Source: Candidatus Poribacteria bacterium
GTDB lineage: Bacteria; Poribacteria; WGA-4E; PCPOR2b
Assembly: GCA_965208325.1 (NCBI GenBank)
Contig: OZ242326.1
Coordinates: forward strand, 2,655,363 to 2,719,362
Length of the DNA: 64,000 bases
Reading direction: 5' to 3'
Shown: positions 5,386 to 63,684 of the stretch, piece by piece
How the letters are laid out: the number at the start of each line of letters is the position of its first letter
Numbering within the stretch: the stretch's first letter is position 1
Made by a program: the position numbers and the translations under genes
Notes under the pieces: generated by a model
Told to the model about the DNA's origin: nothing
Database searches by the model: none
Seen by the model: the letters and a program-made list of their open reading frames with translations, nothing else

Positions 5386-6810
5386 ATGAATTCAACCCAT
5401 TTTCCACGCTGTCCGATTTTGCTGGTAGACAACTCACAACAGTGCTTGACTGATACGAATCTTGCGCTGCATGCGGAAGGTCTTGATCGTGTCCTCCATT
5501 GTCAAGACAGCGGTAGAGTCATGTCCGTCCTATCGCAAAAGGACTTCTCAGTTGTGGTCATGGATTTGCAGATGCCAGGCTTGTCGGGTCGGAGTCTACT
5601 TGAACTGATTGTTACGAATTTCCCTAACCTTCCCGTAATCGTTCTCACCGCGCTGAACAAAGTCCAAACCGTGGTAGAGTGCATGAAAGCTGGCGCATAC
5701 GATTACATGGTCAAACCTGTGGACGGTGCCCGTCTCGCGGCAATCATTCGGCGCGGATTAGAATTCTACACACGGGAAGACCTAAATTGGCTGCCCTCGG
5801 ACACACTCGAACATCCCGACGCATTCTCTGACATTGTTACACACGACCAGGGAATGTACAAAATTTTTCAGTATATCGAGTCAATTGCCCAAACCGCCTG
5901 GTCAGTGCTGATTACGGGCGAAACCGGAGTTGGCAAGGAACTGATTGCGTCGGCACTTCACAATCTAAGCGGGCGAAAGGGTGCTTTTGTCCGGGTCAAT
6001 GTGGCGGGACTCGACGACCAGCTATTCTCCGATACGCTTTTCGGTCACAAACGTGGGGCATTTACCGGCGCGGATTCAGATCGAAATGGGTTAATCGAAC
6101 AAGCGTCACATGGCACGCTCTTTCTTGATGAAATCGGAGACCTGCACCTGGAGTCACAAATCAAACTGCTGCGCTTTCTAGAAGAAGGAACGTACTATCG
6201 GCTTGGCGATGAATTCGAGACAACGAGCAGCACCAGGACGTTAGTTGCGACCAATCGCGAGATTCAACATCTAAAGAATGCCGAATACTTTCGTACCGAC
6301 CTCTACCACCGGTTGATAACCCACCAAATTCACCTGCCGCCGCTTCGCGAGCGATTGGAGGATGTCCCAATGCTGGTTGCCTATTTTCTCGAAAGTGCGG
6401 CTAAAGAAATGGACAAGAAAACACCCGCCGTCACTAAAGAACTTTTTGACCTACTTGGAACGCACAGTTTTCCAGGAAATATCAGAGAGCTTCAGGGAAT
6501 GGTAAAAAATGCCGTTAGTCAGCACAAAGAGGGTGCGCTCTCCACGAATTCTTTTCGCCAAGAGATTGAGGAGCAAAGTATTGAGGCACACGAGGACACA
6601 ATACTTCAAGTAAGGGCGCTTGGAGTGTCGGCGCTACCCATACTCCCTAATTTGAATGAAGCTTTGAAAGAAACGGAACAACTGTTCATTTGCGAAGCCC
6701 TCAAGCGTGCCAATGGGAACCAGTCGATTGCGGCTAAACTCTTGGGTTTATCGAAATCTGCGCTGCACAAGCGCATAAGCCGCACACGAAGGTCTTCGGA
6801 CGATGCATAA
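5386..6810 (+). CDS. sigma-54-dependent two-component response regulator (NtrC/AtoC family enhancer-binding protein)
   Basis: REC domain (D at LVDNSQQ...VVMDLQMPG), AAA+ Walker A GETGVGKE, the sigma-54 contact motif GAFTGA, and a C-terminal Fis-type HTH (IAAKLLGLSKSALHKRI). Confidence 0.9.
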   Translation: MNSTHFPRCPILLVDNSQQCLTDTNLALHAEGLDRVLHCQDSGRVMSVLSQKDFSVVVMDLQMPGLSGRSLLELIVTNFPNLPVIVLTALNKVQTVVECMKAGAYDYMVKPVDGARLAAIIRRGLEFYTREDLNWLPSDTLEHPDAFSDIVTHDQGMYKIFQYIESIAQTAWSVLITGETGVGKELIASALHNLSGRKGAFVRVNVAGLDDQLFSDTLFGHKRGAFTGADSDRNGLIEQASHGTLFLDEIGDLHLESQIKLLRFLEEGTYYRLGDEFETTSSTRTLVATNREIQHLKNAEYFRTDLYHRLITHQIHLPPLRERLEDVPMLVAYFLESAAKEMDKKTPAVTKELFDLLGTHSFPGNIRELQGMVKNAVSQHKEGALSTNSFRQEIEEQSIEAHEDTILQVRALGVSALPILPNLNEALKETEQLFICEALKRANGNQSIAAKLLGLSKSALHKRISRTRRSSDDA

Positions 6811-26883: not shown

Positions 26884-26884
26884 C

Positions 26885-48140: not shown

Positions 48141-49331
48141 TTAAAATTTCGCTCTAATCTGCACTCGAGTCTTGTGCTGATAAGGATTTGATCCGGAAGC
48201 GATTATCTTTTTAGCAATGAAATATAGCACTTCCACGCCGATATTCTTCTCGACCGGCAAGGCAAATTTCAGTTCATGCCCATGTGTATTCGGGTTAAAT
48301 ATATCGGCGTTGTTATAGTTAGATATCATTGATGCCTGTTCCACCCTAACATAATGGTAGAGCGCACGAAGTTTGTGTAGACGAGGAACGGGGCCAACTC
48401 CGACCTCAAACCAATATGCCGTGTCATTCAAATTCGCCAATCGATTCTGCGCATAAGACGCGAGAAGCCACACCGGCACAGTTTCGATTTCTAGTTCATA
48501 CTTCGCAAGCCCCTCAATTATCCTGAATCCAAACGGATAGACTGAGGTGCCTGTACCCGCGCCTACCCGCGCATTTGTATCCCCGCCGCCCAACCTGCCA
48601 TCTTCAACCGCTTGGGCGATGTTGTCCTCGTTTCGATATTCATAAAGCATGGCACCGAACGACAATCCTTTGAGTTGAAATCCCTTGAAAAACAGTTGCC
48701 CCGCGAAAAGGTTCGTATCCGCTCCGCTCTTTGTCTCCGCGAGAATGAACTGCCCTAGATTTGCCCGCACCTGTGAAATAAATCCTACGTCGTCAATGCG
48801 TAACTGTTGGGCTGCCCCTTCCAACTGCACATCGTTGTGAAAAACCAGCTCAACACGTTCAAACGGGTTGGCAAATTTGCCTATGGCAACCGTAAGGGAC
48901 GAGTGCGGCGAATACCGGAGAAAAAGCCTATCAAGATTGAACCCTTTCTTCGAGAAATAGTCGTCTAGGTCAACATTGCCCGTGGTTGGGTCATCCGTCG
49001 CACCCGTGACCATTCTGAAACCGAGATTCACGCGCGGATGAACTGGAAAGTTGCCGCCCATACGAAAACGTATTCGGTATCGATACCGGCTCGGAGAATC
49101 GTCCTGAAAAATGCTCTCTTGGCGGAATCTTGCATCGGCAAAGAAAAACTCCTGCCAAAGCGGCTGTGCTAGCCGAGACACGTCTTTAACCGTCGGCGAT
49201 CCATTTTTGAGAACCGCCGATTCCTGCACTTTTTGAATCTCAGTTACCGAAATCGTATCGGCAGAGGAGATTTGAAGCAACATAACGGTATTAAATACGA
49301 TAATCCGGGCGTAAACGCCGAGTCTTTTCAT
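48141..49331 (-). CDS. outer-membrane beta-barrel protein (putative porin)
   Basis: Signal peptide, alternating amphipathic beta-strand pattern, and a C-terminal aromatic (…RAKF). Confidence 0.55.
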   Translation of the reverse strand: MKRLGVYARIIVFNTVMLLQISSADTISVTEIQKVQESAVLKNGSPTVKDVSRLAQPLWQEFFFADARFRQESIFQDDSPSRYRYRIRFRMGGNFPVHPRVNLGFRMVTGATDDPTTGNVDLDDYFSKKGFNLDRLFLRYSPHSSLTVAIGKFANPFERVELVFHNDVQLEGAAQQLRIDDVGFISQVRANLGQFILAETKSGADTNLFAGQLFFKGFQLKGLSFGAMLYEYRNEDNIAQAVEDGRLGGGDTNARVGAGTGTSVYPFGFRIIEGLAKYELEIETVPVWLLASYAQNRLANLNDTAYWFEVGVGPVPRLHKLRALYHYVRVEQASMISNYNNADIFNPNTHGHELKFALPVEKNIGVEVLYFIAKKIIASGSNPYQHKTRVQIRAKF

Positions 49332-49465
49332 TGCTGGCTCCGCTGCAAGGTTTGGTGTTCAATGATTTAACGCTACTGTACAGAATTTGGACAGCAAAAA
49401 TCACTCTACACAACAAAATCGGTAGAAACTCTGTGTGTAGAAGTGTTATCCGTTCTAAATCCCAT

Positions 49466-49481
49466 TGGCACGAGGATTGCG
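49466..49481 (+). promoter_or_regulatory. candidate sigma-54 promoter TGGCACG-aggaTTGCG upstream of TonB-dependent receptor
   Basis: Matches TGGCACG-N4-TTGC exactly in the -24 and -12 cores. Lies about 70 nt upstream of the ATG at 49550. Confidence 0.55.
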
Positions 49482-49549
49482 TATGCATAATAACAACGAT
49501 GTCAAAATCTTGCAATCTAAAAAAAAGGTGTTGGGAAGGAGAGTAACTG

Positions 49550-51862
49550 ATGACAATTGGACGAAAACAACTATGGGTAGGATTGAGTTTTTTTCTAATC
49601 AGTATCAATCCCGCATTTTCTACGGTGGACGAGGCGAAAGTGAACCCCATTGAGTTGGAGGAAATCACCGTCATTACCCGCGTCCCAAAAGATACTTTCC
49701 GAACACCGAACTCGATTTCCGTCATTGACCGAACGCAAATCGAACGCATCAACGCCGACATCACGCCCCGAATTCTACGCGAAACCGTCGGAATTTGGGC
49801 GCAGCAGACGACTGCCGGGCAAGGTTCGCCGATGCTGCGCGGCCTCACCGGATATCAAGCTTTTCTTTCTATAGATGGCGTCCGACTCAACAACTCTACC
49901 TTTCGCTCCGGTCCAAATCAGTATTTGGGGACAATAAGCCCAGCTAACCTTGACCGAATTGAAGTGTTGCGGGGCGCTGGGTCAATGCTATACGGCAGCG
50001 GCGCCATGGGCGGTGTCATTAGCATGTTCACTAAAGATGTGATTCTGGACAATGCAACGGATAAATGGAACATCCAGTCCCGCACTTTCGGTCGATTCGC
50101 TTCCGGAACTTCAGAACGGCTAGGTCGCTTTGAGGTAATGGGAAACCGCAGGCGGCTCGGGTTTTCGTTTGGTGCGTCCGCCCGCCGGTTCGGTGATATC
50201 AATTCGGGCAGCGGTTACGACCTGCACTACAAGAACCGTAAATTTGAAATTGTCAGCGAAAAACCGCCGGGCGTTGAAATCTTTGAAGGTCCGCCGAAAG
50301 ATGTGCCGGAGCGTTGGCTGATTGACTCTGAAGCGCCGCTGGATTGGAGCGCATACGACGGCGACGCCAAACTCGCCTACCAACTCACTGACACCAGTGC
50401 GGTAAACGTCGCCTACCAACTCTGGCGTCAACCGAAAACCCCGCGCTACGACAAGATTGCACCGCGCGAGTTCGACGAGTTCTTTTTCGAACCCCAACAC
50501 CGAGATCTTCTTTATGCGACTTACTTGAAAGAACCAGCTAACTCCGAGATAGACCAGTTTCGATTTACCGCCTCTTTTCATCGGCAGAAAGAAGGGCGGA
50601 ACGAACTCTTGCGGGATGCCACGGAAAGGCGAGAGCGGTTTGACAAGGTCAACACGTTTGGTCTGAGTGCACAGGCAACCAATGCATCGCTGCCTAACCA
50701 ACGTATTGTCACAGGCGTCGAATTTTATTTCGATACCCTTTCGAGCCAAACCGTCAAGACCGACGTCACGACCGGCGCTGAGAAGGTAGACAACACAAAA
50801 GGACGCTTTATCGACGGATCTCGCTTCTGGGATGCGAACCTCTACGTTCAAGATGAAATTGAGCTGCACGACCGGCTGGAACTCACGCTCGGCGGGCGAT
50901 TCACCCACTATAATACACAAGCCGACCTTTCGGCGCGTTCCGATCAATTTAGCGACTTTAACGAATCCGGAAACGCATTGACCGGAAGTGCAGGCGTCGT
51001 GATAAGCGTCACGGACGGACTGAACCTCGTCGGCAATTTCGCCACATCGTTCCGTGCGCCTTCGCTGAATGATACCACCGCCGTTGAAGTCACCAACGAA
51101 GGTATAGACTCGCCTTCGCCCGCCCTCAAATCAGAGACTGGGTGGACAGCAGAAACCGGTCTTAAAGCACGCTATTCGCAGTTCATTGGCTCGCTTACCC
51201 TTTTTCACGGCCGCATCGACAATTTGGTCACGCGCGTCCCCGTCGAAGAAGCATATGCAGGACAATCGCTTCCAAGCCTGATTACGGAAATTCAACGCAA
51301 CAATCCAGGCGTTGATGTCTATGTATTCGACAATGTTGATGAAGTGCAGACTCAAGGCATCGAGTTGGCTGGAATGTTCACTATCCGAAACAGTTGGGCG
51401 TTCTACGGTAACACGGCTTACACACGCGGGAAGGTGTTGGTGCTTAACGGTGCCGCGCCTAACCCCGATAATCCTTGGGAAGGACGGATTCGCCGTGAAC
51501 CGCCGCTCAACGGAATGTTCGGTATCCGATGGCACCCGTCAGCTAAGCGGTACTGGGGAGAAATTTTCGTTCGCGGCGCAACCGAACAGCGGCGATTGAA
51601 TCGCAGTGACATACGAGACCCGCGAATCCCAGGCACTACCCGTGATACCGGTGAGGTCGAGTTTGATTCACACGGTGCAGCGGTTGGGCAAGGTTCGGCG
51701 AGTTGGGTCACGCTTAATCTGCGAGGCGGTTATCACCTGACCGATTACAATCGAATGACGGTTGCACTTGAAAACCTGTTGGATGAGCGGTATCGCGAGC
51801 ACGGCTCCGGCATCAACGCACCGGGGTTGAATGTGATTGTCAGTCTAGACAATCGATTCTAA
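49550..51862 (+). CDS. TonB-dependent outer-membrane receptor
   Basis: Signal peptide, plug domain (ISVIDRTQIE...LRGLTGYQAFLSIDGVRLNN...RIEVLRGAGSMLYGSGAMGGVI), a 22-strand barrel, and a C-terminal F. Confidence 0.9.
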   Translation: MTIGRKQLWVGLSFFLISINPAFSTVDEAKVNPIELEEITVITRVPKDTFRTPNSISVIDRTQIERINADITPRILRETVGIWAQQTTAGQGSPMLRGLTGYQAFLSIDGVRLNNSTFRSGPNQYLGTISPANLDRIEVLRGAGSMLYGSGAMGGVISMFTKDVILDNATDKWNIQSRTFGRFASGTSERLGRFEVMGNRRRLGFSFGASARRFGDINSGSGYDLHYKNRKFEIVSEKPPGVEIFEGPPKDVPERWLIDSEAPLDWSAYDGDAKLAYQLTDTSAVNVAYQLWRQPKTPRYDKIAPREFDEFFFEPQHRDLLYATYLKEPANSEIDQFRFTASFHRQKEGRNELLRDATERRERFDKVNTFGLSAQATNASLPNQRIVTGVEFYFDTLSSQTVKTDVTTGAEKVDNTKGRFIDGSRFWDANLYVQDEIELHDRLELTLGGRFTHYNTQADLSARSDQFSDFNESGNALTGSAGVVISVTDGLNLVGNFATSFRAPSLNDTTAVEVTNEGIDSPSPALKSETGWTAETGLKARYSQFIGSLTLFHGRIDNLVTRVPVEEAYAGQSLPSLITEIQRNNPGVDVYVFDNVDEVQTQGIELAGMFTIRNSWAFYGNTAYTRGKVLVLNGAAPNPDNPWEGRIRREPPLNGMFGIRWHPSAKRYWGEIFVRGATEQRRLNRSDIRDPRIPGTTRDTGEVEFDSHGAAVGQGSASWVTLNLRGGYHLTDYNRMTVALENLLDERYREHGSGINAPGLNVIVSLDNRF

Positions 51863-51910
51863 TCGAAGGGAATTTGCTGGAGGTCCAAATGAACCGGAGA
51901 TATCGAAACG

Positions 51911-51957
51911 TGCACAAAACCGAGCAAGCGTACATCTGAATTGCACCGTTTTGTGCA
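51911..51957. promoter_or_regulatory. 10-bp inverted repeat TGCACAAAAC / GTTTTGTGCA in the TBDR-WD40 spacer
   Basis: Perfect arms flanking a 27-nt loop. No U-tract, so it is not a canonical terminator. Confidence 0.3.
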
Positions 51958-52043
51958 ACGGCCGACACACTAAAAAAACACATACTGTTCGTACGGCTGG
52001 ACTTAACGCGCATACCGCGCCGAAATTGAAGTGGCGAATCCGT

Positions 52044-52059
52044 TGGCACGCATTTTGCC
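52044..52059 (+). promoter_or_regulatory. candidate sigma-54 promoter TGGCACG-cattTTGCC upstream of the WD40 gene array
   Basis: Full match to the TGGCACG-N4-TTGC consensus. Lies about 95 nt upstream of the ATG at 52155. Confidence 0.6.
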
Positions 52060-52154
52060 CGTCCATTTAATCACCTCGAAGACACTAATCTAGTTTCGTT
52101 AACTAGAATTCTCAGAAGTGAGTATTCACGTGATGATTAAAGAGGAGAGAGACA

Positions 52155-54401
52155 ATGCAAACTGACAAGCAAAACCAATTCATGAAAATGGCACAATTTG
52201 TAACATTAATACTTCTCGTATTGGTAACGGTCACATTTGCATCAAACAGCTCCGCCCAAGGTTCTCCGCAATGGAGTCTCCCCGATGGCGCTAAAGCCCG
52301 CTTCGGCAAGGGTGAGATAAATGAAATACAGTATTCGCCCGACGGTACACGGCTTGCGGTGGCTAGCGGTATCGGTATTTGGCTCTACGATACGGCGACC
52401 CATCAAGAAGTCGCGCTGCTCGCGGGGAATATGTCCGCCGAAAGCGCTGCGTTCAGTCCGGATGGGCGTACCATTTTAAGCGCAAATGGAGACTCAATCC
52501 GATTCTGGCACGCCGATACTGGCGAATCCATGCGAACCGTTACCGTATCGGATTCGGTCGAAAGCGTTGGGTTCAGTCCCGATGGGCGCGCTATAGTAAG
52601 TAGTGCGAGTTGGGGCGATACCGGTGACGAGGATTGGGGAGATACCATCCGTCTTTGGGACGCCGATACGGGCGAACTTCTACACACGCTCACCGGGCAT
52701 TCTAGTATTGTTGAAATCGTTGCGTTTAGTCCAGATGGACGCACTGTCGCCAGCGGGGGTTGGGATGCTACCGTCCGGATGTGGAACGCTGACACGGGCG
52801 AAATCCTTCAAACCCTCATCGGGCATTTTGGTAGTGTCGATAGCATTGCATTCAGCCCCGATGGTGCAATGCTTGCCAGCGCGGACTTTTTCGACATTCG
52901 GTTGTGGGACATTGCTACAGGCGAACTTCTCCGGACGTTCGAGCCGGAAAGAAGTGGCGTCAATGGCGTCGCATTCAGCCCGGACGGCACAACGCTTGCC
53001 AGTGGGATTTGGGAAGAAATTCATCTGTGGGACACTGCTTCGGGCGAACTCATCCGAACGCTCAACGGACATACGAGTTGGGTCAATAGCGTTGCGTTCA
53101 ATCCTGATGGGCGCACTATCACCAGTCACAGCCGAAACGGCGCCATCCGGATGTGGGACGTTACCTCGGGCAACCACCTCGGAACGCTCAACGGGCATAC
53201 GAGTTCGCTCAGGAGCATCGCGCTCGCCCCTGACGGCGCGACGCTCGCTGGCGGGAGCGATACCGGGACCGTACGGCTGTGGGACATTGCGTCTCGCCAA
53301 CACCTGCGTACACTCACTGGAAACAGCCGTAGTGTCAGTAGCGTCGCTTTCAGCCCAGGTGGCACAACGATCGCTACCGGGAGTGATGACAGTAATGTAC
53401 GGCTGTTAGACATTGCGGATGGGGAACTCCTACGAACACTCAGCGGACATAGCTTGAGTGTCCATAGCGTAGCCTTCAGCCCAGATGGTGACAGAATCGT
53501 TAGCGGAGGTTATGACAGTCGGGCGCGGCTTTGGGACGCTGCCACAGGAAACCACCTGTTCACGTTCGACGAGCATGCGGGTTCTGTCAACACCGTCGCA
53601 TTCCACCCAAATGGGCGCACGGTCGCCAGTGCGGGTAGGGACACCCTCATCCGCCTGTGGGACGCCGCCACGGGCAAGCAATTAAAAACGCTCGAAGGAC
53701 ATACGGGTGCCGTCGGTAACGTCGCTTTCAGTCCTGACGGTGCGATGCTCGCTAGTGGAAGCTGGAGTGAGATTATTCTGTGGGACACAGCATCGGGCGA
53801 ACTACTGCAAATACTCAGCGGGCATACGAGTTCGGCCAGTAGCCTCGCTTTCAGCCCGAATGGCAATACGCTCGCGGGCGGAAGCTCGGAAGAGATTCAC
53901 CTGTGGGACATCGCCACAGGCAACCACCTGCGAACACTCGCCGGGCATGCGAAGTCGGTCAGTAGTGTCGCTTTCAACCATGATGGTGACACTCTCGCGA
54001 GTGCAAGTTCGGACGGCACCGTGCTGCTTTGGGAAATTTCCCCATCAACCGGTGTTGGGATTTCGGTAGAACCTTTGGAAAGCCGCATCACGACGTTGGG
54101 AAACATCAAACGCACGGCGCTGCTGCAGAATTATCCAAATCCGTTCAACCCTGAAACCTGGATGCCATATCAGTTGGAACAAGACGCTTACGTCACCTTA
54201 ACCATCTATGACCAGAGCGGTAATGTCGTCCGCATCCTTGACATTGGACATCAAAAACCGGGAGTCTACCGAGACAAATCAGAAGCGGCGTATTGGGACG
54301 GCCGCAACCAAAACGGAGAACCCGTCACCAGCGGCACGTATTACTACCAACTCCGTGCGGGCGATTACACCGCATTACGGCGGATGGTGATTGTCAAGTA
54401 G
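52155..54401 (+). CDS. secreted WD40-repeat protein with T9SS type-A / FlgD-Ig-like C-terminal sorting domain
   Basis: Signal peptide, EIQYSPDGTRLAVASGIGIWLYDTATHQEV, about 14 WD repeats (…IRLWD…), and C-terminal LLQNYPNPFNPETWMPYQL…YYYQLRAGDYTALRRMVIVK. Confidence 0.85.
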   Translation: MQTDKQNQFMKMAQFVTLILLVLVTVTFASNSSAQGSPQWSLPDGAKARFGKGEINEIQYSPDGTRLAVASGIGIWLYDTATHQEVALLAGNMSAESAAFSPDGRTILSANGDSIRFWHADTGESMRTVTVSDSVESVGFSPDGRAIVSSASWGDTGDEDWGDTIRLWDADTGELLHTLTGHSSIVEIVAFSPDGRTVASGGWDATVRMWNADTGEILQTLIGHFGSVDSIAFSPDGAMLASADFFDIRLWDIATGELLRTFEPERSGVNGVAFSPDGTTLASGIWEEIHLWDTASGELIRTLNGHTSWVNSVAFNPDGRTITSHSRNGAIRMWDVTSGNHLGTLNGHTSSLRSIALAPDGATLAGGSDTGTVRLWDIASRQHLRTLTGNSRSVSSVAFSPGGTTIATGSDDSNVRLLDIADGELLRTLSGHSLSVHSVAFSPDGDRIVSGGYDSRARLWDAATGNHLFTFDEHAGSVNTVAFHPNGRTVASAGRDTLIRLWDAATGKQLKTLEGHTGAVGNVAFSPDGAMLASGSWSEIILWDTASGELLQILSGHTSSASSLAFSPNGNTLAGGSSEEIHLWDIATGNHLRTLAGHAKSVSSVAFNHDGDTLASASSDGTVLLWEISPSTGVGISVEPLESRITTLGNIKRTALLQNYPNPFNPETWMPYQLEQDAYVTLTIYDQSGNVVRILDIGHQKPGVYRDKSEAAYWDGRNQNGEPVTSGTYYYQLRAGDYTALRRMVIVK

Positions 54402-54502
54402 CGGCAAATCGTTGCAGCGATTCCGCGTTATTTTATAACCTCGTTTCTGCAATTACTGAGGACGACGTGATTTACGATACTCAACCATCCAGGGCAACTG
54501 TT

Positions 54503-56779
54503 ATGAAGATAGCGTTGATTTTCAAAATTAGCTTACTGTGCGTTTCCGCTCTTTGTCTGCCGCATAGCCTCGCTCAAAAATCTCCGCAATGGAGCCTGCC
54601 CGAAGGCGCAATAGCTCGCCTTGGAAAGGGTAGGATAAGCGATATACAGTATTCGCCCGACGGCACTCGACTTGCGGTAGCGAGCAGCATCGGTATTTGG
54701 CTCTATGATACGGCGACCCATCAAGAGGTTACACTGCTCGCCCCGCATATTTATGTCGAAAGCGTTGCGTATAGTCCGGATGGGCGCACCATCGCGGGCG
54801 GAAGCAGTGACAACATCATCCGACTGTGGGACGCACATACGGGTGAACAACGGCGAATACTCATCGGACATACGAGTTGGGTCAGGACAGTTGCGTTCAG
54901 CCCTGACGGACGCACACTCGCAAGTGGGAGCAGTGACGACACCGTCCGGCTGTGGGATGCGCTCACGGGAAAACTCCTTCACACACTCACCGGGCATTCG
55001 GACGAAATTCGCAGCGTTGCGTTTAGTCCTGATGGCAACTCGCTCGTAAGCGGGAGCAGCGACAATTCCATCCGTCAGTGGGACTCATTTACGGGCGAAC
55101 ACCGGCGAACACTCACCGGACACACGTCTGGCGTAGTAAGCGTCGTGTTCAGTCCAAATGGGCGTACCATTGCAAGTGCGAGCGGGATCAGTGATGGAGA
55201 CGGCATCCGGCTGTGGAACACCGATACGGGACAACTTCGGAGCACGCTCATCGGACATTCGGGGCGGGTCACGAGCGCCGCGTTTAGTCCCGATGGTGAC
55301 AGAATCGCAAGTACTAGTTGGGACAATACAATCCAACTGTGGGACGCACATACGGGTGAACACCGACGAACACTCACCGGACACACGTCTGGAGTAGTCA
55401 GCGTCGTGTTCAATCCTGATGAACGTACGCTCGCAAGTGGTAGTGGAGACGGTACTATCCGGTTATGGGACATTGAATCGGGAGAATTCCTGCGATCAAT
55501 CCCCGGGCATACGGGTTGGGTCGACACCGTTGAATTCAGTCCCGATGGACAAACGCTCGCAAGTGTGAGTTCGAGCTATATCGTTGAGCACAGTCCAAAC
55601 CGCCGCGCAGGAAGTGGGGGCGGCAACGCAACTATCCGGCTGTGGAACGCCGATACCGGAAAACTCAGGCTATCAATTAACGAGTACAAGAATGGAATTG
55701 ATGACGTTTCGTTTAGTCCCGATGGGCGCACTCTCGCTGGTGTTGGCTGGAACAGTATCCAATTATGGGACACCAACACCGGAGAACTTCTGCGAACACT
55801 CAGGGAGCATGAAGGTTGGGTCAATACTATTGCGTTCAGCCCCAATGGACGCACAATTGCTACTGGAGGGAGTTGGGACAACGTCGTCCGTCTTTGGGAC
55901 GCCGATACCGGAAAACTCCGGCAATCGCTCATCGGACATACCGATTCGGTCACGAGCGTTGCCTTCAGCTCCGACGGACACACGCTCGCAAGTTGTGCGG
56001 GATTAGACAATACCATCCGTATGTGGGACGCCAATGCGGGAAAACTCCTGCGTACGTTCACTGGAACTACCGGTTTGGGAGCGAGCGTTGCCCTAAGTGC
56101 CGATGGAAGCACGCTCGCAAACGCCGGTAATTGGGATGGCACCGTCCTGCTCTGGGATACCGATTCAGGCGAACTCCTACATACCCTCACCGGACATAGA
56201 TTTGACGTCGAAAGCATTGCGTTCAGTCCCGATGGACTCATCCTCGCCAGCGGAGGGAGTTGGGACGACACCATTCGACTGTGGAACATCAAATCGGGGA
56301 AACTCCACCAAACACTCAAAGGCCATGCGATTGGGGTGCGAAGCGTGGCGTTTAGTCCGAATGGACGTACGATGGCTAGCGCCGGTTTGGACGGCACAAT
56401 ACTCCTTTGGGATTTTACTCTCAGCACCTCCGATGACGTTGCGGTTGAGAATTTGCCGCAGCTCACCACGACCCTGGGAAACATCAAACGGACGGCGTTG
56501 CTGCAAAATTACCCGAATCCGTTCAACCCCGAAACCTGGATACCGTATCAGTTGGAAAAGAATTCACTGGTGACCTTGATTATCTACAACCAAAGCGGCC
56601 ATATCGTCCGCACACTTGACATAGGGCATCAAAGTTCGGGAGCTTACCTAGACAAATCAGAAGCGGCGTATTGGGATGGATGCAACCAGAACGGAGAACC
56701 CGTTACCAGCGGCGCGTATTTTTGTCAACTCAGGACGGGTGATTACAGCGCGTTACGGCGAATGTTGATTGTCAAGTAA
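54503..56779 (+). CDS. secreted WD40-repeat protein with T9SS type-A / FlgD-Ig-like C-terminal sorting domain
   Basis: Same architecture as the 52155 gene. Start assigned to the Met at 54503 (MKIALIFKISLLCVSALC signal peptide). Confidence 0.85.
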   Translation: MKIALIFKISLLCVSALCLPHSLAQKSPQWSLPEGAIARLGKGRISDIQYSPDGTRLAVASSIGIWLYDTATHQEVTLLAPHIYVESVAYSPDGRTIAGGSSDNIIRLWDAHTGEQRRILIGHTSWVRTVAFSPDGRTLASGSSDDTVRLWDALTGKLLHTLTGHSDEIRSVAFSPDGNSLVSGSSDNSIRQWDSFTGEHRRTLTGHTSGVVSVVFSPNGRTIASASGISDGDGIRLWNTDTGQLRSTLIGHSGRVTSAAFSPDGDRIASTSWDNTIQLWDAHTGEHRRTLTGHTSGVVSVVFNPDERTLASGSGDGTIRLWDIESGEFLRSIPGHTGWVDTVEFSPDGQTLASVSSSYIVEHSPNRRAGSGGGNATIRLWNADTGKLRLSINEYKNGIDDVSFSPDGRTLAGVGWNSIQLWDTNTGELLRTLREHEGWVNTIAFSPNGRTIATGGSWDNVVRLWDADTGKLRQSLIGHTDSVTSVAFSSDGHTLASCAGLDNTIRMWDANAGKLLRTFTGTTGLGASVALSADGSTLANAGNWDGTVLLWDTDSGELLHTLTGHRFDVESIAFSPDGLILASGGSWDDTIRLWNIKSGKLHQTLKGHAIGVRSVAFSPNGRTMASAGLDGTILLWDFTLSTSDDVAVENLPQLTTTLGNIKRTALLQNYPNPFNPETWIPYQLEKNSLVTLIIYNQSGHIVRTLDIGHQSSGAYLDKSEAAYWDGCNQNGEPVTSGAYFCQLRTGDYSALRRMLIVK

Positions 56780-56887
56780 CTCCACACAATTGAAGCAAGA
56801 AACCAACCGTTTTAAAAAAACTGGACTCTATGGTTACTGCGTGCGGTATGAATCAGATGCGGCACACCAACATGGAGGGTTATTGCA

Positions 56888-59119
56888 ATGAAGTTAGCGG
56901 TATTCTTGATGCTTAGCTCATTGTTCGTTTCAAATCTATCGATTCCGCATAGCTTCGCCCGAGATTTTCCACGATGGGGGCCGCCCGAAGGGGCAATTGC
57001 ACGTATCGGCAAAGGCAGGATAAGTGAAATCCAATATTCGCCCGACGGCACTCGACTCGCGGTCGCAAGCAGTATGGGTATTTGGCTTTACGATACCGCC
57101 GCCCATCAGGAGCTCGCCCTGCTCACCGGGCAAACGCCTGTGACTACCGTGGCATTCAGCCCCAATGGGCACACCATTGCGGGTGGGGGTGAGAACACTA
57201 TCCGTTTGTGGAACGCTGCTTCCGGTAAACACGTACTATCGCTCAACGGGAATACGAAATTGGTCAGGAGCGTTGTATTCAGTCCCGATGGCCGCACAAT
57301 CACAAGTGGAGGTGAGGACAAGAATATCAGTCTGTGGGATGCCGACACAGGAAATCAACTACTTACGCTAAGCGGGCACACTGGCTCGGTCAATAGCATC
57401 GCGTTCAGTCCTGACGGAAAAACACTTGCTAGCGGCAGTAGTGACGGCACTGTCCGTTTCTGGAACACGGATACTGGAAAACACCTGAGAACGATTACCC
57501 AGAATAAATCTGGAGTCGGAATCGTTGCATTCAGTCGCGATGGAAACACACTCGCCAGCGGGGGTAGCTCCATCATCCGCTTGTGGGACGTCAATACCGG
57601 GATTCAGCGGCGAATTCTCACCGGGCATACGTCCGGAGTCGAAAGCGTCGCTTTCGGTCCCGATGGTAACACAATCGCTAGTGGGGACGGTGCCGGCATC
57701 ATCTATCTGCGGGACGCTGATACGGGTAATCGCCGGTTTACGTTCACCGGGCACACAGATTCAGTCACGAGCCTGGCGTTTAGTCCCGATGGAAACACAA
57801 TCGCTAGCGCGAGCGCAGACGGCACAATCCGTCTGTGGGACACCGATTCGGGAAGACACCGGCAGACGCTCACTAGACCGGGCACGGTCAATAGCATTGC
57901 GTTCAGTCCCGATGGTAACACAATCGCTAGTGGGAGCGGGGATAACACCATCCGTCTTTGGAACGCAGATACACGGGATTATCAGCGTACACTCACCGGA
58001 CATTCGGATTGGGTCTATAGCGTAGCCTTCAGTCCCGATGGTAACACAATCGCTAGTGGGAGTTGGGACAATACCATCCGCCTATGGGAGGCGGATACAG
58101 GAAAACACCTGCGTACACTAGACGGGCATAGGGGTTTTGTCAACAGCATCGTATTCAGTCCCAATGGCAAAACACTCGCTAGTGGGAGCGCGGACGATAC
58201 CATCCGTCTGTGGGACACCGAATCGGGAGCACATCAACGTACGCTCATCGGGCATACAGATTGGGTCTACAGCGTCGCGTATAGTCCAGATGGAAACACA
58301 ATCGCTAGTGGAAGCGGCGATGGCACCATCCGTCTTTGGAACGCAGTTACAGGAAAACCGCGACGCACGCTCACCGGACACACGCATTGGGTCTTTTGCG
58401 TCGCCTTTAGCCTAGATGGAAACACAATCGCTAGTGGAAGCGGCGACGATACTATCCGTCTGTGGGACTCAAACACAGGAAATCTTCGACGAACACTTAC
58501 AGGGCATGCACTTCCGGTCGAAAGCGTCGCATTCAGTCCAGATGGAAACACACTCGGTAGTGGAAGTACGGACCATACTATTCGGCTCTGGGACACTGAT
58601 ACTGGCGAACACTTGAGGACACTCACCGGACACACGGCTACGGTCTATGATTGGGTCTTTAGTGTAGCGTTCAGTCCCGACGGCAAAACACTCGCTAGCG
58701 GCGGAAGTTGGACTGGCGATGGAAATCGGGACGGTACCGTGTTGCTGTGGGAATTTCCCGCTTCTAGCGGCGTTGGGGTCGGTGTGAAACCGTTGGCAAA
58801 ACTTACCACGAAACTCGGAAACATCAAACGAACGGCGCTGTTACAGAATTTCCCGAATCCGTTCAATCCCGAAACCTGGATACCGTATCAGTTGGAAAAA
58901 GGTGCTTGGGTCACATTAACCATCTATGACCAGAGCGGTCACATGGTCCGCACCCTAGACATCGGAAATCAAGTTTCAGGAGTGTACCTAGACAAATCAG
59001 ATGCGGCGTATTGGGATGGCCGCAATCAAAACGGAGAACCCGTAACCAGCGGCACGTATTACTATCAACTCCATGCGGGCGATTACGCCGCATTACGGCA
59101 GATGGCGATCGTCAAGTAG
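56888..59119 (+). CDS. secreted WD40-repeat protein with T9SS type-A / FlgD-Ig-like C-terminal sorting domain
   Basis: Same architecture. Contains an uninterrupted run of about 14 WD repeats. Confidence 0.85.
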   Translation: MKLAVFLMLSSLFVSNLSIPHSFARDFPRWGPPEGAIARIGKGRISEIQYSPDGTRLAVASSMGIWLYDTAAHQELALLTGQTPVTTVAFSPNGHTIAGGGENTIRLWNAASGKHVLSLNGNTKLVRSVVFSPDGRTITSGGEDKNISLWDADTGNQLLTLSGHTGSVNSIAFSPDGKTLASGSSDGTVRFWNTDTGKHLRTITQNKSGVGIVAFSRDGNTLASGGSSIIRLWDVNTGIQRRILTGHTSGVESVAFGPDGNTIASGDGAGIIYLRDADTGNRRFTFTGHTDSVTSLAFSPDGNTIASASADGTIRLWDTDSGRHRQTLTRPGTVNSIAFSPDGNTIASGSGDNTIRLWNADTRDYQRTLTGHSDWVYSVAFSPDGNTIASGSWDNTIRLWEADTGKHLRTLDGHRGFVNSIVFSPNGKTLASGSADDTIRLWDTESGAHQRTLIGHTDWVYSVAYSPDGNTIASGSGDGTIRLWNAVTGKPRRTLTGHTHWVFCVAFSLDGNTIASGSGDDTIRLWDSNTGNLRRTLTGHALPVESVAFSPDGNTLGSGSTDHTIRLWDTDTGEHLRTLTGHTATVYDWVFSVAFSPDGKTLASGGSWTGDGNRDGTVLLWEFPASSGVGVGVKPLAKLTTKLGNIKRTALLQNFPNPFNPETWIPYQLEKGAWVTLTIYDQSGHMVRTLDIGNQVSGVYLDKSDAAYWDGRNQNGEPVTSGTYYYQLHAGDYAALRQMAIVK

Positions 59120-59185
59120 GAGAACGACGTGTTCAATGACTATTCTGCGGATTACGTTATTTATGTCGCAGTTTACAGAACTATA

Positions 59186-61405
59186 ATGAAAACAGTCTCC
59201 ACGTTAATTTTCTGTCTGACGTTAACTTCAGTTGTTTTTGCCGAACTTCGGCCCATCGGTTCATTGGGAAAGGGTGAACTCCGGGATATTACCTTCCTGC
59301 CAGATGGGAGAATTCTGCGCGTTCTTTCTAACCGTATTGAGTTAGCCGACCCAAATACTAGGGAAACTATAGGACGATTTGCTGACAGAACAGTGTCTAT
59401 GGGGAATGTCACGGTCAGCAGAGACAGTTTGAGGTTAGCAATTGTACGGACAAAGCGCTCCCCATCGCAAACTGCGATTGAAATATGGGAGTTGGCATCA
59501 CAACGAAAAATCCTTCAACGCACGATCCCGCTGACCCTTTATCACACAGCATTGAGCCCAGATCTAATGGTTTTTGCTGGACACAATGAGGGAATAATTC
59601 GCCTCTGGAGTGTCGAAACGGGCGAATCTCTCGGTGAGGTTAAATGGACGGATCAGCCCAGCTTTGTCCGGTTAGCGTTCAACTCAGATGGGCGGCAACT
59701 ACTCTCCATCAATTCTTATATCTCCCGTGAGCTTCCCGGTGGCGACGACCATTGGGAGACGGCCATAAGCAACTGGGATATTGCTTCTCGTCAACGCTTG
59801 TGGAGCTACACAAGAACTTTTAGGGTAATACGTGCGATATACAGTCCTGATGGTCGTTGGATTGTTATGGCTGACACCAATGATCGGATTCAGTTTTGGG
59901 ACGCGAAGCTAGGGACGCAACAGCTTGTTTTGCACGTCACAGGTAATGCGCAAAAAATGCGATTCAGTCCCGATAGCAAGAGGATTTACATTGCATCCGG
60001 CACAAGCGGTTACCCAAGGCAACCCAATCGGGTAAGCATCTGGGATATCGAAACCGGTGAACAACTCCAGGAATTGGGCGACGAAACACTTGGCATTGAG
60101 GGGCTTACTATTTCGCGCGATGAAACACAAGCAGTGATCTGGTATCACAATGGATTTGTCTCGCTATGGGACATTCAACAACGCCGCCGTCTCGCGCTCC
60201 AAACCGATTACGTTTCTCCGAGTTGGGGATCTGTTACGCCGGATGGGCACTACCTAGTCAGTGGATCGAACGCTGCCCTCATAATCTGGAATCTCCGTAC
60301 ACAATCGCTCCAGGCAACAATCTTCCCCAACGAGTATGTTTTCCGTCATGTTGCGATGTCGCCGCACGGACAGTATTTTGCTGTAGGTCATGACCCATGG
60401 ATAGAAATACGGGAGGCACGCAGCGGTCAAATTCTTTTAAAAGTTCCAAATAATGTTGGATCGACACCCTACGTTTTCAGTAACGACGGGAGGCGGCTTG
60501 CCGTAGGCCAGCATAGCAGTGTAGTCATTTACAATCTTCACAATCCCGATAAACGGGAAGAACTGTTGCCAAAGGAACAAGCTTACATCTCAGAACGTCA
60601 TATCGTTTTCAGCCCGGACGACCGCTATCTGGCAGTATCGGATTGGGACAACGAGGTGCATCTGTGGGAAAATAACATGGACAGATATGTCCATCGCTAT
60701 TCGTGGCAAATTCCGGCATCTCAGATCGACGACATCGAATTTGAGCCGAAACCGACGAATCCTGCGCTAGTTGTTATCGGAAATGGGGATGAGTTACAGG
60801 TGTGGGAACTTGGAGACACCGCCCCGAAGCAATCAATGCGTTTCAATGCCTCCGCTCCAATCCATTTTGTGCACGGCGGTGCTGAGTCTCTCCATCTGCA
60901 AAGGGATTACCTGTTTGTTAATCACGGGGGAAGACTTCAGATTTGGGATTGGGCAATCAAAACACCCGTCACGGCACCTGACATCCCACGCTACTTTGCT
61001 GCAAATCGGGATGGTTCAGTCGTGGTAGCCCGGGATTATGTTTCCGACCAAACGCGAATCTGGAACGTCCGACAACTAATCTTTCCCAAACCGATACTTT
61101 TGGGCGAAGTTAGACGGACAGCGCTCTTGGCAAATTTCCCGAATCCACTCAACCCTGAAACATGGATTCCCTACCAACTTGCAGATTCTGCTAATGTGCA
61201 AATCCATATTTATGATGTTGCGGGGCATCTGGTACGGACGTTAGATTTAGGCACGAAACTCGCGGGGAGTTATCTCTCACGAGAGACTGCGGCCTATTGG
61301 GACGGCCGCAATAATATGGGCGAGGCGGTCGGCAGCGGGGCATACTTCTACACGCTGGAGACCGGTGATTTTCGGACCACGAGACGCGTGACTGTTGTGA
61401 AATAG
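59186..61405 (+). CDS. secreted divergent beta-propeller protein with the same C-terminal sorting domain
   Basis: Signal peptide and irregular beta-propeller repeats. C-terminal RTALLANFPNPLNPETWIPYQL…AYFYTLETGDFRTTRRVTVVK. Confidence 0.75.
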   Translation: MKTVSTLIFCLTLTSVVFAELRPIGSLGKGELRDITFLPDGRILRVLSNRIELADPNTRETIGRFADRTVSMGNVTVSRDSLRLAIVRTKRSPSQTAIEIWELASQRKILQRTIPLTLYHTALSPDLMVFAGHNEGIIRLWSVETGESLGEVKWTDQPSFVRLAFNSDGRQLLSINSYISRELPGGDDHWETAISNWDIASRQRLWSYTRTFRVIRAIYSPDGRWIVMADTNDRIQFWDAKLGTQQLVLHVTGNAQKMRFSPDSKRIYIASGTSGYPRQPNRVSIWDIETGEQLQELGDETLGIEGLTISRDETQAVIWYHNGFVSLWDIQQRRRLALQTDYVSPSWGSVTPDGHYLVSGSNAALIIWNLRTQSLQATIFPNEYVFRHVAMSPHGQYFAVGHDPWIEIREARSGQILLKVPNNVGSTPYVFSNDGRRLAVGQHSSVVIYNLHNPDKREELLPKEQAYISERHIVFSPDDRYLAVSDWDNEVHLWENNMDRYVHRYSWQIPASQIDDIEFEPKPTNPALVVIGNGDELQVWELGDTAPKQSMRFNASAPIHFVHGGAESLHLQRDYLFVNHGGRLQIWDWAIKTPVTAPDIPRYFAANRDGSVVVARDYVSDQTRIWNVRQLIFPKPILLGEVRRTALLANFPNPLNPETWIPYQLADSANVQIHIYDVAGHLVRTLDLGTKLAGSYLSRETAAYWDGRNNMGEAVGSGAYFYTLETGDFRTTRRVTVVK

Positions 61406-61459
61406 GATTGCTCCTCAAATCGCCGCCGCCAATAAACATCAATTGACCTTAATGCCGTT

Positions 61460-63511
61460 ATGTTAAAGCGATACTTTAAGCAGATCGCGCTTGCCGTAAT
61501 CTGCATCAGCAATCCATTGCCGACGGTTTTTCTCGGAAATGCCCTAGGCGATCAGCCCGATTCAGAACTGACCGATGCGAAACCTGTTGAACTCGACGAG
61601 ATTGTCGTGACACCCGGCCGGTTTGCGATTGATGACGAAACGCCGTCAAGGATATCCCTCTCAAAACGGCTCATTGAACGCTTTCCGCTGGTTGATAACG
61701 ACGTGATGCGGGCTGCACATGTTTTCCCGGGGGTCGTTGCAAGCGATTACAGTGCGCGATTCAGCGTGCGAGGCGGCGAAAAGGACGACGTTCTGGTGAG
61801 GTTGGACGGCATGGAGCTCTTCAATCCGTACCACCTGCAAGACTTTGGCGGCGCAGTTTCACTCGTTGGGCTAGATTTAATTCAACGCGTCGAACTGTTG
61901 ATGGGCGGCTTCCCCGTGGAATACGGGGACAAAATGTCTGGCGTGTTCGACATGACAACAAAGTCCAAGAAAATCGACAAGGTTTCCGCGAATTTCGGAG
62001 TTGACCTTATCAATACAACCGCGATGGTGGAAGGCCCCTTATCAGAGAAAGGGTCGTGGCGCCTATCTGCACGCCGCGGCTACGTTGACCTGATTCTTGC
62101 GCTAATCGATCTTGATGAGGACTACAAGCCGCAATATGCTGATGCCTACGCCAAACTTACCTATTCGCCGACACAGACGGACACAATCACTCTAAACGGT
62201 CTATACGGTTGGGACAAGAACCGGATTCGGCAAGAAGACATCGAAAATAACTTAGATTCGAGATATGACAACTTGACCGTTTGGACGCGGTGGCGGCATC
62301 GCTTTGGAAATGCGAACTGGTCAGATGTGTTTGTTTTTGGGGGAAACGCAGCGCAAGACCGGCGCACCGGAGCCGAGGACTTCGATGTACGCTCGTTCGG
62401 TTTCTTCGGAGCCAAAACCGAATTTACAGCCGGATTTCTGGACAAACACCTGTTTCGCAGCGGAATTGAATGGCGCAGGATGACAGCGCAATACGAGTAC
62501 GATGTCCGCGAGCGGCAACCCGGTGTCAATAATTATGCAAGGGTAGTTGCGGACCTAGAAGGCAGCGGCGGCGAACTGAAGGCATACATTCAAGATGAGT
62601 GGCAGCTCCACCCGAAACTCGCGTTCAACTTTGGCGGGCGGTATATATTCCAAGACTATCGCGCTGCGGGTATCCAAAACTACGAATTAGGACCCCGCGC
62701 GGCGCTTGCCGTTCGCCCAACAGAGAAGCTAGTGTTGCGCGGGGCGTGGGGGTTTTATCACCAACCCATCCGTTTGATGAATATCCCTGTCGAGGACGGT
62801 GTTCAGACTGTCGGGCGCGCTGAACAAGCGGTTCATTACATTCTCGGCGGCGAATACCGTCCAAGCGATAATTTCCTGTTCCGTTTGGAGTCGTATTCAA
62901 AAACATTGGACAATCTTGCGGGTCGGCTCAGGGAATTTGGCCGGCAGGCACAGATTTTCACGCCTCCGGAATCCGGGGCGGCAAAAGGGGTAGATATATT
63001 TGTCACGCATGCGGTTTCAAACCGGTTCACGTGGAGCATCGGCTATGCATACACGGTTGCCAAAGAAAGTGCAGGCGGCGAGACATTTTTCCGGCAGTCT
63101 GACCGGCGGCATGCAGTCGCAGTCAGCAGCAGCCATCAACTTTCGCGCGGGCGGCATCTCTATCTGACGTGGCGTTTCCATTCCGGCGAACCGAGAACGC
63201 CGTTGACGCATTCGCTGGTCTCTCTGCCGAAGGGAAACATCGCCTGCGACCGGCAGTTCGAGGCGACGCATTCAGAGCGGATGCCGCCCTATCACAGTCT
63301 CGATTTTCGGTTCACGGATCGGAATCCATACAGCCGGTGGGAACTCACCTGGTATTTCCAAATTTTAAATCTTTACAATCGAACTAACCTTGACCAGTAT
63401 GCTTTCAGTGAGGTGCGAGACGAGGAAACGGGAGCGCTCATCCGATGCGAAATTGATGAAGAGCCGATGCTGCCGATTCTGCCGACATTGGGCGTTATGG
63501 TCGCGTTTTAA
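61460..63511 (+). CDS. TonB-dependent outer-membrane receptor
   Basis: Plug domain (VELDEIVVTPGRF…VLVRLDGMELFNP…GGAVSLVGLD…VELLMGGFPVEYGDKMSGV), barrel, and C-terminal …VMVAF. Confidence 0.85.
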   Translation: MLKRYFKQIALAVICISNPLPTVFLGNALGDQPDSELTDAKPVELDEIVVTPGRFAIDDETPSRISLSKRLIERFPLVDNDVMRAAHVFPGVVASDYSARFSVRGGEKDDVLVRLDGMELFNPYHLQDFGGAVSLVGLDLIQRVELLMGGFPVEYGDKMSGVFDMTTKSKKIDKVSANFGVDLINTTAMVEGPLSEKGSWRLSARRGYVDLILALIDLDEDYKPQYADAYAKLTYSPTQTDTITLNGLYGWDKNRIRQEDIENNLDSRYDNLTVWTRWRHRFGNANWSDVFVFGGNAAQDRRTGAEDFDVRSFGFFGAKTEFTAGFLDKHLFRSGIEWRRMTAQYEYDVRERQPGVNNYARVVADLEGSGGELKAYIQDEWQLHPKLAFNFGGRYIFQDYRAAGIQNYELGPRAALAVRPTEKLVLRGAWGFYHQPIRLMNIPVEDGVQTVGRAEQAVHYILGGEYRPSDNFLFRLESYSKTLDNLAGRLREFGRQAQIFTPPESGAAKGVDIFVTHAVSNRFTWSIGYAYTVAKESAGGETFFRQSDRRHAVAVSSSHQLSRGRHLYLTWRFHSGEPRTPLTHSLVSLPKGNIACDRQFEATHSERMPPYHSLDFRFTDRNPYSRWELTWYFQILNLYNRTNLDQYAFSEVRDEETGALIRCEIDEEPMLPILPTLGVMVAF

Positions 63512-63587
63512 TAATTACTGAATCCAGTTAGATGGGCCCGCAACGGGAAGCAAGTTTTGCTGAATAAAGAGAGTGGATTGTCTTAAA

Positions 63588-63684
63588 ATAGTATCAAATG
63601 ACCAGATGATAGCTGGTATGCTGATGTTTATTGACTTCTAGCCATCACCAATAAGCAAGTTCGGTTTGGCTTAGTTAGCGTATC
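63588..63684 (+). repeat. second copy of the approximately 95-bp hairpin element (first copy 1968-2065)
   Basis: aatagtatcaaatgaccagatgatagctggtatgctgatgtttattgacttctagccatcacc… aligns with 1968-2065. Confidence 0.8.

Follow-up and report, generated by a model that had tools for sequence, protein, structure and literature searches.

In a 64,000-nucleotide stretch of the Candidatus Poribacteria contig OZ242326.1 (positions 2,655,363 to 2,719,362 of the forward strand; the whole of this stretch is referred to below as the window), four consecutive genes for beta-propeller proteins with signal peptides lie between two genes for TonB-dependent receptors, all six being placed on the same strand by the list of open reading frames (ORFs) in the order TBDR1, WD-A, WD-B, WD-C, Prop-D and TBDR2. 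We consider, with a probability of roughly 0.6, that the four propeller genes are a lineage-specific WD40 array whose products share a C-terminal domain (CTD), and that this array, equipped with its own promoter, occupies a variable, recombination-prone slot of a sigma-54-driven receptor pair. The source organism is a sponge symbiont, and Poribacteria are dominant, uncultivated symbionts of sponges, in agreement with the host-associated lineage anticipated in an earlier sequence-only reading of the same DNA. That reading had also described two receptors bracketing four propeller-CTD genes, three of them canonical WD40 genes encoding about 14 blades and one divergent, with a fifth paralog at the left edge of the window; ORF and Pfam analyses confirmed the bracketed array, a hidden Markov model (HMM) built from the repeats returned 14 blades for each canonical protein, the fourth protein gave a far lower WD40 score, and the edge copy was found to end in the same CTD.

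The variability of the slot was recognized from a set of 71 orthologous loci (designated by L numbers; 1.54 Mb in total for the dyad scans described below, with promoter counts taken over 70), in which the TBDR1 orthologs are 57–89% identical to that of the window and every one belongs to Candidatus Poribacteria or to a metagenome-assembled genome. The TBDR1–TBDR2 pair is conserved within a clade whose TBDR1 identity is 76–89%, and TBDR2, at 79–93% identity, partners TBDR1 in 18 loci, but the contents between the two receptor genes vary. Only one of the 71 loci, that of sister genome L001, matches the layout of the window. The slot is empty in five close relatives, where TBDR1 and TBDR2 are 106–309 bp apart, and six genomes place in it either a small PSCyt1 lipoprotein followed by a PSCyt1(-dockerin)-CTD protein or an immunoglobulin-like (Ig)-CTD protein. 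In L002 and L003, one WD40-CTD gene is found in the slot and more follow TBDR2, while other loci have BNR/Sortilin, fn3 or unannotated lipoproteins there. A more distant clade has neither TBDR2 nor a CTD gene at the locus, and the putative porin gene (Porin_5) upstream of TBDR1 is found in L001–L003 only.

The second line of evidence is the promoters. The motif TGGCAC-N5-TTGC occurs exactly twice in the 64 kb, at 49466 (P1) and 52044 (P2), both times on the plus strand, in an intergenic region and co-oriented with the downstream gene; shuffled controls gave a mean of 0.22 matches, and 2 of 100 shuffles reached two. The two elements, which had been described as near-consensus sigma-54 promoters, are in fact both perfect. 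A P1-type element (TGGYAY-N5-TTGC) is found no more than 450 nt upstream of the TBDR1 ortholog in 67 of the 70 loci, with a median distance of 97 nt to the start codon, and in 47 of the 70 a TGTYCA-N5-TGRACA dyad precedes the −24 element by 58–85 nt; the 54 matches to this dyad in 1.54 Mb are almost all at the TBDR1 promoter position. P2 is kept before the WD-A orthologs of L001 (12498) and L002 (12499), and related copies stand before WD40-CTD genes downstream of TBDR2 in L002 (18050) and L003 (21773). The dyad TGCACY-N4-KGTGCA, of which the form at P2 is TGCACC-N4-GGTGCA, has just six matches in 1.54 Mb (one each in the window and L001, two each in L002 and L003), and all six are located about 86–91 nt before a −24/−12 element upstream of a WD40-CTD gene. 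These WD40 promoter cassettes also share a conserved 5′ untranslated region (UTR), which contains the inverted repeat listed in Table 1 and a second small one, GTGAGTATTCAC, at 52122–52133. When metagenomes were scanned for the WD-type cassette (dyad, 80–100 nt, −24/−12 element), 20 loci were obtained, none of which is poribacterial or has WD40 or CTD genes. Perfect matches to the promoter motif inside WD40 genes are a coding coincidence, given that GAT GGC ACA ACG CTT GCC encodes DGTTLA.

These features are shared with promoters of the NtrC/NifA type, namely GG/GC elements at canonical spacing, a palindromic dyad about 60–90 nt upstream of the −24 element and a GAFTGA-containing activator in the genome, and make P1 and P2 credible sigma-54 promoters. 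The WD-type dyad presumably resembles the enteric NtrC site, but its spacer is 4 nt, not 5. Because the dyads at P1 and P2 differ, regulation by one common activator is unlikely. The intergenic gaps inside the array are 54–108 bp with no terminator-like hairpins predicted, making it plausible that the array and TBDR2 form one transcription unit from P2, possibly with read-through from P1; the gene that follows TBDR2 is preceded by a separate sigma-70-like promoter. Sigma-54 dependence in vivo and this operon extent are what we infer from such motifs and gaps.

Table 1. Coordinates of the genes and regulatory elements of the receptor-propeller locus, with related features of the window and of sister loci (L numbers).
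Feature	Position	Strand	Remarks
Porin, putative (Porin_5)	48141..49331	-	PF16930 76.5 bits; divergent to TBDR1
Partial copy of P1 dyad, TGTTCAATGATTTAACG	49356-49372	+	Upstream of TBDR1 promoter
P1 activator-site-like dyad, TGTACAGAATTTGGACA	49377-49393	+	Conserved; within 49356..49393
P1, sigma-54-type −24/−12 element, TGGCACGAGGATTGC	49466..49480	+	Perfect consensus, 84 nt before TBDR1 start
TBDR1, TonB-dependent receptor, 770 aa	49550..51862	+	Plug 75.5 bits, barrel 139.4 bits
P2 activator-site-like dyad, TGCACCGTTTTGTGCA	51942..51957	+	WD40 promoter cassette
P2, sigma-54-type −24/−12 element, TGGCACGCATTTTGC	52044..52058	+	Perfect consensus, 111 nt before WD-A start
5′ UTR inverted repeat, CTAGTTTCGTTAACTAG	52090..52106	+	Conserved block in cassette alignment
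WD-A, WD40-CTD	52155..54401	+	WD40 383 bits; CTD is last ~100 aa (54099-54398)
WD-B, WD40-CTD	54503..56779	+	14 blades, one split by insertion; TIGR04183 29.4 bits
WD-C, WD40-CTD	56888..59119	+	WD40 496 bits; TIGR04183 22.9 bits
Prop-D, divergent WD40-like propeller plus CTD	59186..61405	+	PF00400 54, THOC3-type propeller 118, FlgD_ig 37 bits
TBDR2, more divergent TonB-dependent receptor, 683 aa	61460..63511	+	Plug 33.1, barrel 49.9 bits
Fifth WD40-CTD paralog, cut by left window edge	2..1972	+	At least 13 blades plus CTD; no receptor adjoining
NtrC-type sigma-54 activator	5386..6810	+	Receiver, AAA+ with GAFTGA, HTH_8; PF00158 184 bits
PSCyt1 protein in slot of L005	15532-17298		PSCyt1 slot proteins often have dockerin repeats plus CTD
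PSCyt1 protein in slot of L006	13694-15478		
PSCyt1 protein in slot of L016	13348-15048		
PSCyt1 protein in slot of L054	14081-15916		
PSCyt1 protein in slot of L071	13414-14865		
PSCyt1 protein in slot of L018	20419-22248		

The recombination-prone character of the slot was deduced from the divergence between the window and L001. The flank at 40940–47891 is 98.6% identical to L001 at the DNA level, and from the porin rightward, after a break at 47891–48139, identity falls to about 86% and is lower still in WD-B and WD-C. Synonymous divergence (dS) is 0.008–0.03 in the flanking genes for ACS, GFO and pyridoxal phosphate (PLP) decarboxylase, and 0.18–0.32 in the porin, TBDR1, WD-A, Prop-D and TBDR2, the high-divergence block beginning with the porin (0.18); WD-B and WD-C are only 61.5% and 68.5% identical to their L001 counterparts, with dS of 1.15 and 0.86, respectively, and Prop-D is 89% identical to its ortholog. 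Such a jump at synonymous sites points to recombination with a diverged allele, together with replacement or conversion of paralogs. Locus-wide positive selection was rejected as its cause because dS rises along with the nonsynonymous divergence (dN), and dN/dS against L001 is 0.18–0.30 throughout the locus, which indicates purifying selection and, with the ORFs intact, also rules out an array of pseudogenes. At the breakpoint, L001 (6953–8591) has an extra gene for a 358-aa outer-membrane protein of the Phenol_MetA_deg family with a His-rich N terminus, which the window does not have. Within the flank, the gene for a FeoA-domain-containing metal regulator of the DtxR/MntR type (41909–42580, minus strand) shows a dS of 0.126, several times that of its immediate neighbors (0.008–0.03).

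The three canonical paralogs score 383–496 bits against PF00400 with 11–13 scored repeats, and Prop-D, which scores just 54 bits, matches other beta-propeller models as well. WD-A, WD-B and WD-C are mutually 51–56% identical, the edge copy stands at 51–56% to each of them, and Prop-D at only 26–29%. The 14 blades of WD-A would make up two 7-bladed propellers. Inspection of the N termini revealed Sec-type signal peptides on all four proteins of the array, with a hydrophobic core, an A-x-A-type site and no lipobox Cys. For WD-B, a longer ORF starts from the TTG at 54293 (54293–54502) and overlaps the end of WD-A, but the ATG at 54503 is the likelier start, as judged from the alignment of the resulting signal peptide with those of the paralogs. 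For 22 of the 47 blades examined, the nearest relative is found within the same protein, compared with 11 expected; in the edge copy, the adjacent blades E03 and E04 (about 236–490) are 90% identical in protein sequence, which suggests a very recent intragenic duplication of a blade.

The same 47 blades were used to calculate per-position entropy, and the rigid scaffold with variable loops that had been noticed earlier was indeed seen, with maxima at positions 4, 8, 9, 11, 20, 27, 29, 37 and 40. Positions 8, 9, 11, 27 and 29 correspond, as we take it, to the D–A loop or start of strand a and to the B–C turn, which is to say the top face of the propeller. In true ortholog pairs, dN/dS was 0.49–0.55 for the top face, 0.19–0.25 for the scaffold and 0.48–0.76 for the other loops, so that every loop class remains below 1 and the other loops are as relaxed as the top face; positive selection on binding loops was therefore rejected. 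Judged from these ratios, the loop variability is ordinary WD40 relaxation, targeted diversification is without support, and the proposal of the sequence-only reading that the array represents a diversified binder family was not borne out. The annotated genes of the window include neither a reverse transcriptase nor other machinery for diversification, although no search aimed at such genes was made.

The CTD, of about 100 aa, is common to the four array proteins and the edge copy and is always placed at the extreme C terminus, with 79–84% identity among the canonical copies and 54% between the CTDs of Prop-D and WD-A. Searched alone, the CTDs gave 39.5–45 bits with FlgD_ig (PF13860), above the cut-off of 27, with 42.2 bits for that of the edge copy, and the CTD of WD-A scored 45 bits with FlgD_ig, 30.1 with CHU_C, 21.6 with PF18962 and 24.1 with TIGR04183. 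CHU_C was above its cut-off for two of the five CTDs in the window. The cut-off of TIGR04183 (23) was passed by WD-A (24.1), WD-B (29.4) and Prop-D (27.8), and WD-C (22.9) was marginally under it; these alignments run to the last residues. A hook-cap (FlgD) identity was dismissed because the N-terminal FlgD domain is absent and no full-length match exists: the FlgD equivalog models gave 25–49 bits against cut-offs of 230–383, in the Ig part only, the remainder of the proteins being WD40. A profile of the CTD matched FlgD chains in the PDB with E = 6e-6 and the CTD of PorU weakly. The AlphaFold (AF2) model, obtained from a 42-sequence alignment with a pLDDT of 92.7, is an Ig-like sandwich, for which Foldseek returned FlgD, Fn3 domains of C5a-peptidase, PorU (TMq 0.63), PorZ, the CTDs of NucA and RemA on the T9SS (type IX secretion system) translocon, as well as the CTD of RgpB. 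Because the scores are similar over FlgD, Fn3 and T9SS CTD folds, the fold is consistent with a T9SS CTD, yet cannot tell these possibilities apart.

The CTD also carries an NYPNPFNP motif and a terminal V/I-V-K, which we assume to be akin to the motifs of T9SS type A CTDs. Like type A cargo of Bacteroidota, the array proteins have a Sec signal peptide, their last 90 or so residues are modeled as an Ig-like sandwich at the extreme C terminus, with an NYPNPFNP-type motif and an end that is basic, and their tag is common to proteases, adhesins and repeat proteins; the modeled fold matches the CTDs of PorU, PorZ, NucA, RemA and RgpB, but equally well the FlgD Ig domain and Fn3 domains of C5a peptidase. 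In sister genomes, the CTD of the present study is found on an M36 peptidase that also has PPC and cohesin domains, an Mx-peptidase/dockerin protein, a 5′-nucleotidase fragment, a leucine-rich repeat (LRR)-cohesin-dockerin protein, PSCyt1 proteins and an Ig protein (Big_9/He_PIG), and this spectrum of cargo suggests a general sorting tag for extracellular-type proteins rather than one specific to WD40. At least 1973 relatives of the CTD were found in the protein database. Among the matches listed (P0001–P0120), the best relatives are all 79–175 aa long, almost none is named and many come from megabase contigs; they may be stand-alone CTD ORFs, fragments of genes split in repeat-rich regions or the product of a length bias in the search.

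Both receptors score above the cut-offs of PF07715 (Plug) and PF00593 (TonB_dep_Rec_b-barrel). TBDR1 has a signal peptide, the TonB-box-like sequence ELEEITVIT and a C-terminal Phe, and TBDR2 has ELDEIVVTP and a C-terminal Phe. The best NCBIfam match of TBDR1 is TonB-hemin (TIGR01785) at 199.3 bits, but with a cut-off of 316.85 an assignment as a heme or hemoglobin receptor was not accepted; TBDR2 had no match to this model.

The slot proteins of sister loci offer further observations. The PSCyt1 slot proteins, whose name-giving domain is planctomycete cytochrome-c-like, are preceded by a small PSCyt1 lipoprotein, and their presence beside a receptor whose best, sub-threshold family is that of heme/hemoglobin receptors makes a heme-related role conceivable. 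The slot of L005 contains a gene for a WD40 double-propeller protein (12522–14591) with a terminal dockerin instead of the CTD, a replacement that fits surface attachment. Other CTD proteins bear cohesin domains (L008, 20391–22235; L010, 15717–19880), and the distribution of the two domains suggests a cohesin–dockerin surface network in Poribacteria. Divergently upstream of TBDR1, L008 (5531–9829, minus strand) encodes a 1432-aa Reg_prop protein (two-component regulator propeller) that has orthologs in 18 loci and occurs at this position in the clade of 76–79% identity; with 83 bits against a cut-off of 260, it was not accepted as PorZ.

Several observations weigh against our explanation, and they concern both the export of the proteins and the independence of the array from the receptors. 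PF18962 (Por_Secre_tail) remained below its gathering score of 27 for all five CTDs of the window (19.9–25.0 bits), although one CTD of a sister genome reached 28.0 bits; the earlier assignment of a T9SS/FlgD-Ig-type CTD thus stands for FlgD_ig and, in three of four proteins, for TIGR04183, but not for PF18962. Pfam and NCBIfam scans detected no T9SS structural genes in the 64-kb window, in which a protein of the FGE-sulfatase family, with 91.6 bits against a GldK cut-off of 350, was rejected as PorK/GldK. Kamke et al. 2014 (PMC3909097) did not find Por structural genes in poribacterial single-cell genomes and left the pathway open, and reviews of the T9SS describe the system as confined to Bacteroidota/FCB. 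Because these genes were found neither in the single-cell genomes nor in the window, surface display is an assumption. Moreover, CTD genes make up 12 of the 26 slot ORFs and only 7 of 982 elsewhere (Fisher P = 2e-16; the count is inflated by shared ancestry), with at least three unrelated cargo types in the slot, and this may point to a functional link with the receptors, which our explanation treats as incidental.

That enrichment would be accounted for if the CTD proteins of the slot capture a ligand and hand it to TBDR1/TBDR2, as SusD, hemophores and TbpB do. Every gene of the slot is oriented like the receptors, with no terminators, the PSCyt1-CTD genes of sister genomes lack promoter elements of their own and would depend on transcription from P1, and heme/hemoglobin receptors, the best family match of TBDR1, would suit the cytochrome-c-like domain of PSCyt1. 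A further resemblance to SusC/SusD, HasR/HasA and TbpA/TbpB loci is that a receptor adjoins same-strand genes for surface proteins and that genes for secreted proteins or lipoproteins are enriched beside it. No gene of the locus, however, matched a SusD-, HasA- or TbpB-like partner in Pfam or NCBIfam, the partners here are structurally unrelated and vary or are absent between genomes, and the five genomes with an empty slot keep the receptor pair. Furthermore, the WD40-CTD genes have a separate promoter with a different dyad and occur also away from receptors, as does the left-edge copy, or after TBDR2 (L002 and L003), and the score of TBDR1 with TonB-hemin is far under the cut-off; with shared ancestry inflating the enrichment, we consider such a receptor-plus-binder system unlikely. 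A more general form of the idea, in which the slot is dedicated to cargo and the receptor barrels are functionally coupled to CTD surface proteins, whether for uptake of captured ligand or, more radically, as part of the machinery by which CTD proteins are exported or anchored in a phylum without a recognizable T9SS, seems very improbable to us.

Another explanation takes the proteins not to be secreted cargo: the CTD would be a FlgD-like Ig domain, and the WD40 proteins would be periplasmic scaffolds comparable to TolB, BamB or the WD40 portion of PorE. This would be in line with the higher scores of FlgD_ig than of the T9SS models, with FlgD as the best match in the PDB by both sequence and fold, and with the missing Por machinery in the single-cell genomes (PMC3909097). 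An organism outside Bacteroidota/FCB, the sub-gathering PF18962 scores, the leading FlgD_ig scores and the lack of T9SS machinery, of which none is known from the phylum and none was found in the window, are what distinguishes the array proteins from type A cargo. A periplasmic scaffold would nevertheless not be expected to have its tag always at the extreme C terminus with NYPNPFNP and the terminal V/I-V-K, to pass TIGR04183 in three of four proteins or to share the tag with M36 and Mx peptidases and with LRR, cohesin and dockerin proteins, and both the N-terminal FlgD domain and a flagellar context are absent; this explanation is thus rather improbable. The least credible is the one advanced in the sequence-only reading, in which the activator encoded at 5386–6810 drives both promoters and makes the WD40 and receptor genes a co-regulated module. 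The activator is certainly present, with GAFTGA at residue 224, and both promoters have perfect −24/−12 elements, but it is about 43 kb from the locus and beside its own sigma-54-like site at 7145, neither type of dyad was found near its gene, the dyads of P1 and P2 differ and are each conserved in their own set of loci, and P1 is conserved even where the locus has no WD40 genes. With the layout shared by a single locus of 71 and the slot empty in five, the co-regulated module has to be given up, and one common regulon is hardly to be entertained.

Returning to the explanation that we prefer, a lineage-specific array in a variable slot, the two parts of the locus can be considered as follows. 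The conserved part would be a poribacterial outer-membrane uptake unit in which TBDR1 is transcribed from P1 after activation by an enhancer-binding protein that recognizes TGTYCA-N5-TGRACA about 70 nt upstream, and TBDR2, which directly follows TBDR1 in close relatives, is probably co-transcribed. The lineage-specific part would have arisen through the insertion of WD40/propeller genes between the receptors and their tandem expansion to four. The first gene of the array would have brought with it a cassette consisting of the TGCACC-N4-GGTGCA dyad, P2 and the conserved 5′ UTR, which was duplicated along with WD40-CTD genes at other sites in sister genomes. Because its dyad is distinct, P2 probably answers to a different activator; it probably drives WD-A, WD-B, WD-C and Prop-D and also, by read-through, TBDR2. 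The proteins would then be exported by Sec, the CTD most likely directing them across or onto the outer membrane, where, in the sponge host, the double 7-bladed propellers might serve as "eukaryote-like" surface modules that bind proteins. Export through the CTD, display on the surface and a role in host binding are inferred for the WD40 proteins from these features.

The activator gene shows that sigma-54 regulation is present in the genome, but its candidacy for P1 or P2 was rejected because it has no dyad in common with them, and no link to the locus can be drawn from the sequence. It is flanked by sigma-54-like elements with one mismatch (5143–5157 and 7145–7159). The latter heads an operon (7221–13668) for a UshA-like/glutaredoxin-domain protein, two DUF1573 (OS_HP2-like) proteins and a C39-peptidase/DUF1573 protein, and repeated TGTGGACA motifs (6900–7000) are located about 150–230 nt upstream of 7145; judged from this arrangement, the operon is probably the activator's own target. 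Elsewhere in the window, a cluster for biosynthesis of surface glycan (19357–32392, plus strand) includes genes for three GT2 glycosyltransferases, epimerases/dehydratases, a GHMP kinase, a transketolase-like protein, a DegT aminotransferase, a B12-radical SAM enzyme and a MATE/flippase-like protein. A scan of the whole window with Rfam gave zero matches.

The class of protein encoded by the array is not new. Kamke et al. 2014 (PMC3909097) reported that eukaryote-like proteins of Poribacteria, "especially WD40 repeats," bear the TIGR04183 sorting domain, and their proteins agree with those of the present study in phylum, in the combination of WD40 with a TIGR04183-type CTD, in signal peptides and in the question of the export route; that work gives domain counts, however, and not loci. 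It was therefore an overstatement to regard the arrangement as not a described system. The use of a T9SS-like CTD without a recognized T9SS is a puzzle already on record, to which the window offers no solution. The literature searched contained no mention of the tandem array or its location between two receptors, of the sigma-54 cassette and its separate dyad, or of the variable slot, and nothing in it joined sigma-54, TonB receptors and WD40 genes in Poribacteria. The protein class and the puzzle of the CTD are thus known; new detail comes from the promoter cassettes, both dyads and the slot.

What the locus adds is regulatory and evolutionary. WD40 and other eukaryote-like repeat proteins of Poribacteria are thought to mediate interaction with the host, and the genes described here show how one such group travels with its own sigma-54 cassette and expands by tandem duplication of genes and duplication of blades, its place in a conserved receptor operon being a slot prone to recombination. 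Both dyads, in turn, offer a tangible means of delimiting two sigma-54 regulons in a phylum that is uncultivated.

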